From NCBI GenBank assembly GCA_964016885.1, contig OZ024742.1, forward strand, positions 287,742,001-287,806,000: 64,000 bases of DNA. Reading direction: 5' to 3'. The stretch is from Eledone cirrhosa (Eukaryota). Below the pieces are notes generated by a model that was not told the origin of the DNA, did no database searches, and worked only from the letters and a program-made list of their open reading frames with translations. Positions 625 through 55,382 of the stretch are shown here, in pieces. Positions within the stretch are counted from its first letter, which is position 1; each line of letters starts with the position of its first letter. Position numbers and translations under genes: made by a program.

Positions 625-892
625 ACTGAAGTAAAAGTTAAGTGGAAAAATCCAAGAGTAAGAGCACTCAATCCATAGGACGAGTTTAGTATAAATAATT
701 ACAACAGTGACATAATCATGTACTCAAATTTCGTTGGGTTCTGGGTCCCTATTCATTCAGCCTGTCATGAGAAAAGTAAAAGCAAAGATGGCCTCTTTGT
801 TTTTACTTTTTTCATGACAGGCTGAATGAATAGGGACCCAGAACCCAACGAAACTTGAGTACCTGATTATGTCACTATTGTAATTATTTATA
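625..892 (-). mobile_element. Fold-back Penelope-like/retrozyme-like element in (TA)n (palindrome 690-892 plus 3' tail 625-689)
   Basis: About 100-bp near-perfect inverted arms, hammerhead-like motif in the arms, ACTC..GAGTGCT tail hairpin, TA repeats on both sides. Confidence 0.7.
813..871 (+). ncRNA. Type-I hammerhead ribozyme-like motif, variant core CUGAAUGA
   Basis: cagg CTGAATGA ataggg-acccagaa-cccaac GAAAC ttga GTA cctg; stem I cagg/cctg extended by catga/ttatg. Confidence 0.55.
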
Positions 893-2186
893 TATATATA
901 ATTGAAGCTATATATAAATATAATGTGGGTAATAATAAATATTACCTAATTACAAGTATAAAAATAGTTCACTGTAAAATACCAAGTATACTACAGAGCC
1001 GAAATACAATATAAATGACTATCAAAGAGTGTTTAAAACATTTAATCACAATCGTTTCATTCTAGTACAAGGTCGGAATTATCGGAGTAGATAATAAATA
1101 TAACAAATATAATATCAATAAAAATAACAAATGTAATATCAAAACTTTGTCACAAGAATATTAGGAGGATACATAATATGGGACGCTAGATAAGCATAAG
1201 TATCAACATTTATATAAGATATAATATATATATATATCGACAGTCGATCGACTTTCGTCAAATCGGACCGAGAAAACATTGGTCTTTCCAATTGCTAATA
1301 CTCTCTATCGGTCGCAACTCCAGATAGAAGGAGCAACGTGAAATAAGGTGTCATTCCCAATTAACCTAAATTTGGAAACAATAAAAACAATGGAGACTGG
1401 AGTGACTATATCTGACGCAAATCAACCGAGGTGTAATACATTTTATTTAGTAAGGCGGTGGATTGACACTATAGGTAAAGCATCGGACAAAATGCTTTGC
1501 GGTATTTGTTACGATTTTCTACGTTCTGAGTTCAAATCCCATCGAGATCAGCTTCCAAGTACTGGGGTCGATCTAATTGTCTTCTCTTTCCCCCAATTGC
1601 TAGTGTTGTATCTATATTAGAAATTATTATTTCATCAAGAGCAGTGGATTGACAGAGCGTCCGACAGTTACTTAGTAGTATTTAATCGGGCTCTTTACGT
1701 TCTGGTACCAGTCAAGTACTGAGTCGATTTATAATGGACTCTCTCTCTCTCTCTCTCTCTCTCTCTCTCTCTCTCTCTCTCTCTCTCTCTCTCTCTCTCT
1801 CTCTCTCTCTCTCTCCGCTCCAAATTACTGGCCTTGTGCCAAAATTAGAAGACATTATTACGGTCCTTTACGTTGTGTTCAAATCCCACCAAGGATGTCT
1901 GGCTCTATCTAATAAACCAGTACATGTAAAATGGAAAGGTTGTGATAAGTTTGAACAAGTTAGCAAAGAAGAAGGAAAGCCCCCACAAAATACTAAGAAA
2001 GTATTGATAAAGAGATATGAAAGAAATATGATAATAATGATATATTCAATGAAATAATAACAATCAACAAAACAGATAAAGGAAAACAGACAAACAAAAC
2101 ATGCATATTAAACACTTTCTATTTATCTTCATAGTGAAAGTGGTATGTTTTGTGTTGAAAACTGTGATATACTGTTGTTGTTCAGA

Positions 2187-2910
2187 CGGTGGCGGCGGCG
2201 GTGTTGGTGGTGGTGGGGAGCTGTTGGTGGTGGTAGTGGTGATGGTAGCGGTGAAGGCGGCGACGGTTGTGGTGGCGGTGGTGGTGGTTGTGGTGTGTGT
2301 GTGGGGGGGGGGGGGTTTGAGGTGGAAGTGGTGATAGCGGTGAAGGTGGTAGTGTTTGAGGTAGTGGTGGTAGTGTGGTGGTAACGGTGAAGGTGGTAGT
2401 GTGGTGGTAACGGTGAAGGTGGTAGTGTTGTTGTTATTGTTGTTGTTGTTGGTGGTGGTGGTGGTAGCGGTGGTGGTAGCGGTGAAGGCGGTAGTGTTTA
2501 TGGTAGTGGTGGCGGCGGCCACCACTACCACCTCCACCGCTATCACCACCGCTACCACCACCGCCGCCACCACTACCACAAACACTACCACCTTCACCGC
2601 TACCCGCCTCTCCACCACCACCATCAACACCCCTGCCGCCAACAACACTAGCAACAGTGATAGCAACAAGTAGTAGTGGTGGTGGTGTTGGTGATGGCGG
2701 TTATTGTGGTGGCGGTGGTGGCAGTGGTAGTGGTGGTGGTGTTTGGAACTGTTGCGTTGTAAACATTAATACTTTTTTTTTTCATTGGCAGTGTTGTACT
2801 TACTGATATCGATCGAGGGGTGGTGGTGTATATTTTAGTAGTTGATGCAGTCACTTTTAGCACTGCTGATGGTGCTGTTGGTGGTGCTGCTGTTGTCACT
2901 TTTAGCACTG
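2187..2910. repeat. Degenerate (GGT)n / (ACC)n trinucleotide low-complexity region
   Basis: Visible in the sequence; gives poly-V and poly-T pseudo-ORFs; similar tract at 3560-3800. Confidence 0.9.
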
Positions 2911-4649
2911 CTGTTGTAGTTGTTATGTTTGTCTAAAAGTCTAAAGTCTTTCCTAAACTCAGAGGTTCATAAAGCCGGTGTTTATCCTGATTTCCTTGGC
3001 GGTAAGAGACTGTACTCTACTACTGCTTGTGCTCATTTTCAGCTGAGTATACTGGAGCAAAGTGAAATGAAGTATTTTGCTCAAAAACACAACACACAAT
3101 CCGGTTCAGGAGTCGAACCCACGATATTTTGATTGTAAGTCCAACACCCTAACCACAAGGCCATGAACCTAAGTAGTTAGGGTTTTGTGATGGATTTAAT
3201 CTGTTGTCCAGTTTAACACCACCGCCTGGTCTTTTGGGTGCCTTTAACGGAGCCGACTCTGTTAAAGAAGTTTCCAGTTTGAGGATACGTCCCTTCTTTC
3301 CAAAAAATCTCAGAGATCCTAAAAGGAGTTCACGGTACTGCCCTGCTCTACCTAACTAATCAGTCAATAAAATATATATTCTTATCGAACAGATGATTTA
3401 AAGAGTTCTAGCTGTGACCATGGCGGTATTTTTTTTATTTATCTAGGACTATATGTCTTATACAACATTACTTTATTTATGATGTGGATTTGAGGGAAAG
3501 TTAGCAGCTATTTCCAGCAGGTCGAATGATCGCGTAGAGGTTTCATTGTTGATTAGAGTGTTGTTGTTGGTGGTGGTGAGTTGGTGGTGGTAATGATAGT
3601 GGTGGTGACAGAGGTAGAGGAGCGTTGATAGTGAGTGTGGTGGAGGTGGTGGTGATACTTTCGGTGTGGTGTTGGTGTTGATAGTACTGTTATTAATACT
3701 AGTGGTGGTGGCGATGGTGATAGTACTGTTGATAATACTAGTGGTTGTAGTAGTGGTGGTGTTGTTGGTGTTTAGTGTTAGTGATGGTAAGGGGGTGATG
3801 ACATTTTTCTCCCATATCCGTTTCATTTTCTGCTTATTGACAAATTTGAAGAAAAAAACATAATAAACAAATAAAGTTCCCGGATCTCTCTCGCTCTCTC
3901 TCTCTCGTTATTAAACTTCTACTTTCCTCCTTTTTTGTTGTTGTTGTTGTTTTCTAGTCTTCTACTACTTCCTCTCCTCTCCAACACCGCCACTATTCAC
4001 GTTTACTACCACTAAACCCCTCCCCTCCTCACCGATTTGATTTAAATTCATGCAAGACCTGAATTATTGTCAATCTACAACGTTTACACAAAGGAACTGG
4101 ATACCACCGCTTATAATCCATATATATTATATATTTATAAATAGATATCTACATACATATATATTTATTTACTTACTCGCAAAGGAGGACTCAATACGTA
4201 AAGCAGAGTATACAAAATCTTTTAATAGTTGATATTGGTGAAACTCTACTCCTTCGAGTTACTTCAGTCCCAATTCCAACTAATATATATACACACACGT
4301 GTGTGCGTGTATGTATATGTATATCTATATATGTACTGTATATATGTGTATATGCCTCTATATAAGTACCACTACTGACGGATTAGCTGTTTTGGATGTA
4401 AAGTACCTACATGTAATTTAAGGCAGGACAAGAAAAATTTACACAAACAATCGTAAGAATTTTGCTATATGATCAATTTCTTTTGTTTTGTTTCGTTTTT
4501 TCAATTATATATATATCTGTTGTTCTTTTATAAGTTTTGTTGCTGTTGTTGTGTAGCCCAGGTCCAATCTGATCGAACAGACCTATGTATGATTAAAAGT
4601 ATCCCCGCCGTAACCATCCCTCGGAATCTTGGACTGCATTATCTAATGA

Positions 4650-53822: not shown

Positions 53823-53964
53823 TACATGCATTTATTTTAATCTTTACAAAATCTATATGACTAGTGTTTCATGCCTCGCTATCTCAATGTACTGCTGACG
53901 ATGATTAATGATTCTGAACTACATGGATGTAGAGCTCTTACACAAATATCCACGTTGCTGTGAT

Positions 53965-54185
53965 ATTCAATTCAATTCAATTCAATATATTTGGCAGAAA
54001 TTAAAACATAGATGCTTCAGATGCCATGTAAGGAGGGGAGGGGGGGGGGGGGCAACATTTACACAGTCCGAAACACAGTAGTCCAACACCGGTCCAATTT
54101 CGCCTTGAATTGTTGCGTGGTTGACGTGTTGACTACTTCTTCTGGAAGCCGATTCCAGGGTCCAGAGATGCGGATCGAGAAAGCA
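53965..54185 (-). mobile_element. CR1/L2 LINE 3' end with (ATTGA)n tail
   Basis: AFSIRISGPWNRLPEEVVNTSTTQQFKAKLDRCW. Confidence 0.75.
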
Positions 54186-55382
54186 ACTTAAACTACTCAG
54201 ATCGAGACTAAATTATACATAAACCTATTTTACATGTGTCCATATATGCCTCTATTTATTCTTATATATTAAAATTAATGGATCGGCAAAATCGTTAGCG
54301 CATCGAACAAAATGTCTTAAGGTTTTATATTACTAATATATAAACTCCAACATCTTACTATAATTTTATCGTCTCAGGGGCGGAGGAGGAGAGAAGCTGA
54401 GATGACTATGGATTTTGAATTCATAACGATGGTGAAAGAAATTTAATATTTGAACGAAGTATTAAATAAAGATAAACAAAACTAGCTAATTAGATTAGAA
54501 TAAACGAAGAAATGTTTTTAATGAGGAAATTATATTTTAAGATTTCTTGAAAATCAAAATTCCATAATATATAGTTTAGTGACGGCTCCTTTCAACATAT
54601 GCTTCTGGTTATTTGAAACTAATCCACTCTACTGAAAACCCTGGTTTAATTCAGGGGCTGGTGTTTGGCTGGTTGAGAACATTGTTGATGTGGTAGTGGT
54701 GGTGGTGGTGGTGGTGGTGGTGGTTGGTTGAGAGGCTAGTGGGGATGGTATGGTGGTGTTCGATGTAAGCAAATGCTTCTTTTCTAATGCTGGTAATGAA
54801 GGAAAACATGGATTAAAATTTTTCCTCAACAGTTCGTGTGTGTGTGTGTGTTTCTTCCGGAATTGAATGCTCTCTGGGATTAATGATACGTTTCGTCATT
54901 TGAAAGTTTCCACTCTTATACACACGCATATAAACACACACATACACACACACACACACACACACGCGCATATAACACACACACACACACACACACACAC
55001 ACACACACACACACACACACACACACACACACACACCCACACACCCACAGTAATAAACTAAATGGAGATTTCAAGTAGATGAGTGGTGTGTGTCAGCATG
55101 TTAGTAAAAAATGTCCACATTATAAACATATAACGATGTTACTTTGATTTTATATATATATATGTGTGTGTGTGTGTGTGTATACATACATACATACATA
55201 CATAATATAGAGATGACTTCTACAGGACTAGAACTGTTTCATTCGAAGCCATTTATATATTAAATATTTATACTCTGTTATGTATTGAGTACCTTACTTA
55301 TTGCGGTTACCCCCGATCGAACGCGGGACACACACACACACACATACATACATACATACATACATACATACATACATACATA

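Follow-up and report, generated by a model that had tools for sequence, protein, structure and literature searches.

The 64,000 nucleotide (nt) stretch of the Eledone cirrhosa contig OZ024742.1 analysed here, below "the window", is AT-rich and full of microsatellites. It carries short inserts with a common bulged hairpin motif, resembling products of the Hydra clade of Penelope-like elements (PLE), retrotransposons with a reverse transcriptase (RT) and a GIY-YIG endonuclease. The motif consists of RCTC, a variable inner stem, a bulge of 1-2 nt on the 3' side and GAGY-RCTYT, with RCTC/GAGY as an outer stem of 4 bp. On sequence evidence we hold with high confidence that it is a genuine cis motif, apparently not described before, that belongs to a known clade; the clade, its tail, its hammerheads and its two-site initiation are already known.

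Hairpin-bearing inserts of the window

Most sites are short head-to-head inserts between (TA)n arrays. Per insert, one arm halts a few nt before the hairpin, and the other crosses the hairpin and continues for 24-86 nt (the tail). The hairpin preceding the tail is called hairpin 1, to distinguish it from a hairpin 2 following the tail in longer elements. An initial annotation of the window had listed ten hairpins, all of which are found at the positions and on the strands it gave. Three further copies, all degenerate, at 4209(-), 39977(+) and 38477(-), and a half copy at 52200 had been missed. The sites are:

661..685 (-): hairpin 1, inner stem 4 bp, 1-nt bulge; two-armed insert 625-888, tail 40 nt, tail-less arm ends 4 nt before the hairpin
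822..870 (+): minimal type I hammerhead core in the tail-less arm; mirror copy begins at 760 (-)
4184..4209 (-): degenerate extra hairpin; tail 24 nt, decayed hammerhead-like sequence upstream; rank 9 (E 0.83) in the independent model described below
12828..12856 (-): hairpin 1 without trailing RCT; two-armed insert 12786-12967, tail 47 nt
15212..15236 (-): hairpin 1; insert 15176-15338, arms match over only 14 nt
15270 (+): hammerhead core, only in the tail-less arm of insert 15176-15338
19563..19597 (-): hairpin 1, inner stem 5 bp, 2-nt bulge; tail 77 nt, no matching arm found
20245..20273 (-): hairpin 1; two-armed insert 20201-20407, tail 49 nt, other arm ends 5 nt before the hairpin
21810..21834 (+): hairpin 1; two-armed insert 21629-21869, tail 40 nt, other arm ends 4 nt before the hairpin
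21738 (+) and 21695 (-): hammerhead cores of insert 21629-21869
28373..28397 (+): hairpin 1; insert 28296-28433, tail 41 nt, hammerhead-like core on the opposite strand only
28566..28590 (-): hairpin 1; two-armed insert 28510-28962, arms 98.6% alike, tail 61 nt, other arm ends 5 nt before the hairpin
28864 (+) and 28696 (-): hammerhead cores of insert 28510-28962
38353..38477 (-): extra hairpin, G-C closing pair, recognised by eye; tail about 35 nt, with a hammerhead-like core 72 nt upstream of the hairpin
39977..40009 (+): extra hairpin, one outer-stem mismatch; insert 39945-40043, tail 41 nt, very short inverted arm
52200..52297 (+): hairpin of which the 3' half is present, followed by a tail; 99% identity with 52811-52908; start, truncated 5', of a 611-nt tandem unit
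52800..52827 (+): hairpin 1, G-C closing pair, inner stem 5 bp, 2-nt bulge; tail 86 nt; top match of the independent model (E 6e-6)
55272..55295 (+): weak hairpin, trailing ACC; tail 37 nt, then (AC)n; independent model E 0.05

Several of these sites have peculiar surroundings. The loop of the hairpin 38353..38477 encloses a (TA)n array of 47 units (38371-38464); either a TATA loop expanded or a cut at this point created the array. Two hairpin-bearing inserts are bordered by mirror flanks of the type (TA)n(AG)n - element - (CT)n(TA)n (28258-28509 and 39837-40160). One prior compound array would not yield such flanks; repeat addition at priming or later slippage could. The 611-nt tandem unit (52200-52908) possesses the hairpin, no open reading frame (ORF) and no clear hammerhead, is truncated within the hairpin loop and is a candidate non-autonomous element. 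Beyond hairpin 1 of the two longest tails, at a distance of about 57-60 nt, a bulged hairpin of other sequence can be drawn (about 52860-52890(+) and 19510-19540(-)), found by eye after the fact and given no weight.

Structure and frequency of the motif

The outer stem RCTC...GAGY is kept at all ten reported sites, and the trailing RCT, described as equally constant, at eight of them (TGA at 12833, ACC at 55272). The next microsatellite follows GAGY after 37-86 nt (n=10), in line with the earlier estimate of about 35-90 nt. The description of the carriers as otherwise unrelated holds in part: about eight groups can be told apart among 11 copies, but 15212, 21810 and 28373 share their tails, and 12833 and 20245 share upstream sequence. 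Similarly, a position just outside the end of the inverted arm applies to six of the ten sites, where a matching arm ends right before the hairpin; no such arm was found at 19564, 52800 or 55272, and at 28373 the two arms scarcely overlap.

The inner stem varies between groups, and its halves pair better with their own partner than with halves of other groups (24/40320 permutations with 8 groups, 4/720 with 6 groups). The conserved 1-2-nt bulge on the 3' side had escaped the initial annotation. With the strict pattern RCTC..GAGY-RCT and an inner stem of >=3 bp, itself derived from window sites, 47,750 unmasked nt contain 7 matches, whereas 60 dinucleotide shuffles give 0.22 on average (maximum 2). 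A relaxed scan gives 33 matches, most of them with 1-2 mismatches and distant from microsatellites; all eight zero-mismatch matches sit 40-86 nt before a microsatellite, compared with 17% of random unmasked positions. These chance tests use window sites first chosen as hairpins and are biased in favour of the motif. A covariance model built on five window copies (R1) recovers its five training sites and, weakly, three others. MAFFT alignments A1-A3 and A9 misregister hairpins of unequal length and were excluded from pair counts.

Rfam has no match on any hairpin site among the best 150 of 388 window matches, and a PDB sequence search yielded no relative. A remnant of hammerhead stem III was considered and rejected because the flanking core is missing at the hairpin: there is no conserved GAA upstream, and the base following GAGY, where a cleavable NUH triplet would be expected, is A or G in 27 of 30 cases. 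Hammerhead cores sit 66-106 nt upstream of the hairpin. Some Hydra ribozymes carry an ACTC/GAGT stem III (PMC8557442; statements on published work refer here and below to the sections of each source that were covered).

Independent loci and covariation

Public assemblies were scanned for the outer motif together with (TA)6, with neither inner stem nor hammerhead in the pattern. The scan returned 18 matches in 16 loci (L001-L016), of which 13 are animal-like, 12 of these from the single assembly CBDDTI01 (L002-L010, L014-L016) and one from NZ_MPRK01000348 (L011). Animal-like loci contain ORFs for an RT with C-terminal GIY-YIG domain, and the hairpin lies 3' of the ORF. The other three (L001, L012, L013) are bacterial, have no hammerhead and a weak or absent inner stem, and are excluded from the covariation counts. 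BLASTN matched nothing between the window and the loci, so their likeness is limited to the motif. Rfam gives eight matches in 8 of the 16 loci searched, none on a hairpin. The contigs of CBDDTI01 and NZ_MPRK01000348 are filed as bacterial yet hold animal-type retrotransposons and (TA)n arrays, and are likely host contamination; the Hydra inserts in them are nested in one another's (TA)n flanks.

With a fixed 2-nt bulge, 41 of 45 inner pairs form in 15 distinct locus hairpins, compared with 14-20 of 45 for bulges of 0, 1, 3 or 4 nt, and 47/200000 permutations among eight collapsed types match the inner-pair score. In a structure-blind alignment of 12 of the 18 locus hairpins (A6), 24 cells are changed on both sides against 7.8 in shuffled data (0/500), although relatedness is not accounted for in this shuffle and a single assembly supplies most of the loci. 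Slid registers on the same alignment drop the pairing to 23-58%, and RNAalifold returns an identical fold for the locus hairpins. The closing pair is G-C in the independent loci and mostly A-U in the window copies.

A covariance model of 34 positions, made from the 12 locus hairpins alone, places all ten reported window sites among its top 13 window matches, five of them at E <=0.05. Its matches at 54847 and 48779 were inspected and not accepted as copies. The suggestion of a cis motif belonging to a Penelope-like RT/endonuclease element is thereby borne out: the inner stem covaries in independent loci, the model made from these recovers 10/10 window sites, and place and orientation relative to the element ends are fixed, as described in the following.

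Arm ends, tails and hammerheads

In 9 of 11 copies it is (TA)n in which the tail ends; at 28373 it is (CT)n followed by (TA)n, and at 55272 (AC)n. Each of the eight two-armed window inserts has one tail, and exactly one tail is present in 13/13 two-armed inserts examined in window and loci, all of them selected via the tailed arm. Tail-less ends lie 3-6 nt 5' of hairpin 1, in fixed orientation, in 11 of 12 ends (6 window, 6 loci), in a search that is blind to ends >10 nt before the hairpin and with shared TA bases that blur the exact point. The twelfth end (12966) lies at 9 nt by strict identity and at 5 nt if one substitution is allowed.

Minimal type I hammerhead cores are predicted from the sequence in several arms, on the strand of the hairpin and upstream of it. 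The core is confined to the tail-less arm in four of the 13 two-armed inserts (window 15176, window 28296, L006 and L007). Two of these four inserts are young, being 98-99% identical to relatives.

Assignment to the Hydra clade

By their motifs, the ORFs of the animal-like loci (within L002-L016) are assigned to Hydra-clade PLE. [quoted passage not shown] Pfam GIY-YIG matches L004 with E 0.00086, below the curated cut-off, and does not match the other five of six proteins. Named relatives of the locus ORFs come from corals, molluscs, an echinoderm and a hemichordate.

Inspected by eye, four of six new Hydra consensi (Craig 2021, File S7) contain the motif or a variant, two of them twice. The motif lies in the 3' tail of Hydra-2_Amil and Hydra-2_Ajap, and occurs twice, 61 nt apart, at the consensus start of Hydra-1_Ajap. 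Hydra-1_Crog has two variants, one with the third outer pair altered on both sides. The consensus of Hydra-1_Amil seems to end ahead of any tail. Throughout the supplement of that paper GAGYRCT occurs 54 times, with four clear hairpins, all in Hydra consensi (by eye; line breaks may hide some).

Naiad, the first candidate, was dropped because the motif occurs only in Hydra consensi and beside ORFs with C-terminal endonuclease; Naiad and Chlamys are recognised by an N-terminal endonuclease and the lack of a canonical hammerhead, whereas the motif-linked ORFs have a C-terminal endonuclease and hammerhead cores. The window copies exhibit insertion into (TA)n and an inverted 5'-truncated partner with a one-sided tail, an arrangement described for PLE (PMC8557442), for which hammerheads are likewise known (PMC4209133, PMC2377424). 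We infer that they are 5'-truncated or non-autonomous products of several families. Neither the motif nor its doubling is described in the literature found by full-text search, in text and supplement text of Craig 2021, or in the text of a 2026 retrozyme preprint, as far as these were covered; figures, subscription papers and Repbase/Dfam notes could mention it.

A second hairpin

At L004 746(-) a second hairpin lies about 40 nt before the ORF start region with its conserved N-terminal motif. The copy at L015 2384 has a hammerhead region identical to that of L004, and the last 18 nt of its tail match L004 sequence ending 5 nt before hairpin 2, which puts hairpins 1 and 2 about 61 nt apart. The sequence layout is ORF - hammerhead - end of the pseudo-long terminal repeat (pLTR) - 3-6 nt - hairpin 1 - tail - about 5 nt - hairpin 2 - next ORF. 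Hairpin 2 is not copied into truncated inserts, and the initial annotation could not see it.

Hairpin 2 also leaves a trace in translated database sequences. From a set of 120 homologs, 49 without the anchor and 39 more with <22 upstream residues were set aside, leaving 32 with read-through. In 15 of these 32, a translated GAGYRCTYT trace precedes the conserved N-terminal motif by 8-20 residues (shuffle mean 1.7, maximum 7, in 2000 shuffles). Among 14 testable homologs, ten have a second trace further upstream, at a spacing of 57-63 nt in seven and of 79 nt in three; the seven proteins with 57-63-nt spacing are 40-54% identical. A spacing window of 55-66 nt, chosen after the first trace result, gives 0/5000 shuffles. 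In many predicted Hydra ORFs the frame has been drawn past the likely start codon and through the upstream leader with its hairpins, and the database N-termini of such ORFs are probably mis-called.

Proposed role of the hairpins

In the Poseidon PLE, two internal starts on the sense RNA bound the tail, both target strands are extended and a dimer is predicted (PMC11167929). Read together with the geometry of the Hydra ends, this makes it fairly probable, on sequence and by analogy, that each hairpin docks the RT on the element RNA and determines one of two internal starts, located 3-6 nt 5' of the hairpin. The GIY-YIG domain would cut (TA)n, and two protein copies, likely on hairpins 1 and 2 of one read-through RNA, would prime from both sides of the cut. 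A start before hairpin 1 would give the tail-less arm; a start before hairpin 2 would give the tailed arm, which copies hairpin 1 and never hairpin 2. Short palindromes or microhomology would then serve to link these two truncated cDNAs head to head. More tentative, and in our view rather short of an even case, is the further suggestion of a two-hairpin RNA ruler, in which hairpins 57-79 nt apart may load an RT-endonuclease dimer on one RNA, with staggered starts priming both sides of the (TA)n cut. If true, a single ruler module would explain both the PLE tail and the one-tailed head-to-head inserts, and about 100 nt would suffice for mobilisation in trans.

A number of observations weigh against this interpretation or parts of it, besides the selection of inserts by their tail, the short reach of the end search, the spacing window set afterwards and the dominance of one assembly. 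In just one family can the relation of tail end and hairpin 2 be followed directly; for another tailed copy in L004 the match spans 13 nt and stops about 8 nt short of hairpin 2. The sole window read-through (52297) has no RCTC/GAGY hairpin past the tail end, and the two longest tails (77 and 86 nt) put the end at a distance of 107-109 nt from hairpin 1, which exceeds every hairpin spacing observed. A weak alignment at 4209 would put the end at 13 nt. Only 5 of 13 window copies have a full hammerhead core upstream on the tailed strand; two more have a core on the tail-less arm only. The consensus of Hydra-1_Obim, read by eye, has no full motif. A search for ORFs, also by profile and tblastn, found no convincing Hydra ORF in the window, which makes the assignment of the window copies to Hydra indirect; the best remnant, 29317-29528(-), resembles a Hydra-like RT thumb region and is possibly a real trace of one (E 0.004 by tblastn with a single query out of about 100, profile iE 0.25). 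Finally, the sense strand folds more stably in 13 of 25 cases, neither strand being favoured thermodynamically, and G-U pairs outnumber A-C pairs by only 8 to 2, so that action at the RNA rather than the DNA level is not established.

The last point leads to the best surviving alternative, which we judge unlikely: the motif may act in DNA, the GIY-YIG domain recognising the hairpin or the near-dyad GAGY-RCTC of an intermediate or of tandem copies and cutting 3-6 nt away, thus trimming ends short or long. Strand-neutral folding suits such a role, fixed offsets fit a cut equally well as a start, and the Penelope endonuclease of D. virilis required tail sequence for recognition (earlier work cited in Frangieh 2024, PMC11167929). 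On the other hand, the dyad of the 8-mer is imperfect in most cases, the covarying inner stem with its one-sided bulge points to a single-stranded fold, hairpin 2 is missing from truncated inserts though located at the tail end, and Poseidon tail ends coincide with RT starts in vitro (PMC11167929).

The initial annotation had proposed that the motif may set where a fold-back copy stops, which in this wording is not supported. The orientation of ORF and hammerhead places the arm ends at the 3' end of the element, where reverse transcription of sense RNA starts (PMC11167929), and the arm ends would then be starts of copying, not stops. Internal starts on sense RNA have been demonstrated in vitro for Poseidon in the same study. 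In the four inserts named above, two of them young, a hammerhead core is present in the tail-less and missing from the tailed arm, and a fold-back copy of the tailed strand cannot supply it; the tail-less arm is therefore no such copy, unless sequence was lost later. We regard the stop as less likely again than a DNA signal. As a template boundary, like that of telomerase, the hairpin would end a copy, made by fold-back or on an antisense template, that proceeds outward from the palindromic centre, and a stop 3-6 nt before a bound stem is geometrically apt. Many insert centres are indeed small-loop palindromes, a published proposal for the origin of head-to-head PLE inserts invokes self-priming on an antisense template (PMC3846280), and later deletion or two separate antisense copies could rescue the fold-back idea.

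Of slightly smaller probability still is a role of the hairpins merely in recruiting protein or in control of translation or of the ribozyme, with the ends set by TA microhomology or nearby RNA processing. Many ends fall on a T, TA or TATA of the element, hairpin 2 stands immediately before the ORF start, and the longest tails misfit a fixed ruler; however, some ends share a single base with the array yet retain an offset of 5-6 nt (L015 2384), and the range of 3-6 nt is constant across unrelated families. Chance look-alikes in AT-rich repeat DNA are refuted for the set by the shuffle, pairing-permutation, microsatellite-distance, covariation, independent-model and translated-trace tests and retain practically no probability, although single weak copies could be chance, single hairpins being weak (z -0.2 to -2.6), 55272, 4209 and 12833 degenerate, and three bacterial loci that lack hammerheads having fitted the pattern.

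The PLE tail and the one-sided inverted repeats have long been without a mechanism, and the sole in vitro study found gave two internal starts and no signal conserved across families. The present motif is kept across families that are 40-54% identical in protein and associated with cnidarians, molluscs, echinoderms and arthropods, and keeps a fixed distance to both types of ends. It offers a precise hypothesis of start choice, accessible to mutation, for enzymes that are the closest mobile relatives of telomerase (PMC8557442). The 34-position model is, furthermore, a practical marker for ORF-less Hydra-like fragments and their boundaries in repeat-rich genomes.

Other repetitive features of the window

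A very young head-to-head insert at 40161-41071, with arms 99.4% alike, has one hammerhead per arm at a distance of about 200 nt from the end of the arm; the Rfam HH9 match of 37.7 bits stays under the gathering score. An extension of 66 nt on one side shows no clear RCTC/GAGY hairpin, and the insert probably belongs to another PLE lineage. Two 3' ends resembling those of long interspersed nuclear elements (LINE), presumably RTE-like, lie at about 59240-59470 and 60560-60790 (-), with a short zinc-finger-like frame. They possess a 5-bp stem with ACTC/GAGT about 12 nt from (TA)n, without bulge and in other context. A canonical-looking hammerhead core at 37150-37201(-) has no (TA)n or hairpin near it. 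An inverted-repeat element at 43615-43940, similar to miniature inverted-repeat transposable elements, adjoins (TA)n and is broken by a repeat similar to short interspersed nuclear elements (SINE). The window also contains a 48-nt tandem array (16072-16423) whose unit is faintly like the motif (model R1, E 0.87) and a satellite with a 19-nt unit in 220 copies (32180-36358).

Comparison with known systems

Naiad and Chlamys PLE share microsatellite targeting, inverted truncated copies and a tail with the elements of the window, but differ by an N-terminal endonuclease and the absence of a canonical hammerhead (PMC8557442). The non-LTR retrozymes (bioRxiv 10.64898/2026.07.22.740005) are, like the 611-nt unit 52200-52908, short non-autonomous tandem units, there derived from PLE pLTRs. 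They are defined by a hammerhead per unit, whereas the 611-nt unit has the hairpin and no clear hammerhead; the words "hairpin", "stem" and "tail" do not occur in the covered text of the preprint.

Poseidon PAc of Anolis (PMC11167929) resembles the present elements in a tail between two end positions, a cis signal near the pLTR-ORF junction and the extension of both target strands. Its starts lie inside an AC-rich stem-loop within the ORF, whereas the ends reported here lie 5' of two small bulged hairpins in an untranslated leader. The PAc stretch in Fig. S1 of that paper contains no RCTC/GAGY motif by eye.

Closest to the window are the Hydra-clade PLE (PMC8557442), with (TA)n as target, a minimal hammerhead located tens of nt ahead of the end of the pLTR, truncated copies in head-to-head order and a one-sided tail. 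In text and supplement text of that paper "hairpin" and "stem-loop" occur 0 times, and the sections covered describe no conserved tail motif or motif pair. Compared with the motif of the Hydra clade, the window copies have an A-U closing pair more often than G-C, a subtype with a 1-nt bulge and tails of up to 86 nt. More generally, the 3' stem-loops of LINE and SINE and the boundary stems of telomerase RNA are small structured RNA elements that position an RT. Unlike these, the Hydra hairpin is located beyond the copied segment, is doubled and marks internal positions.

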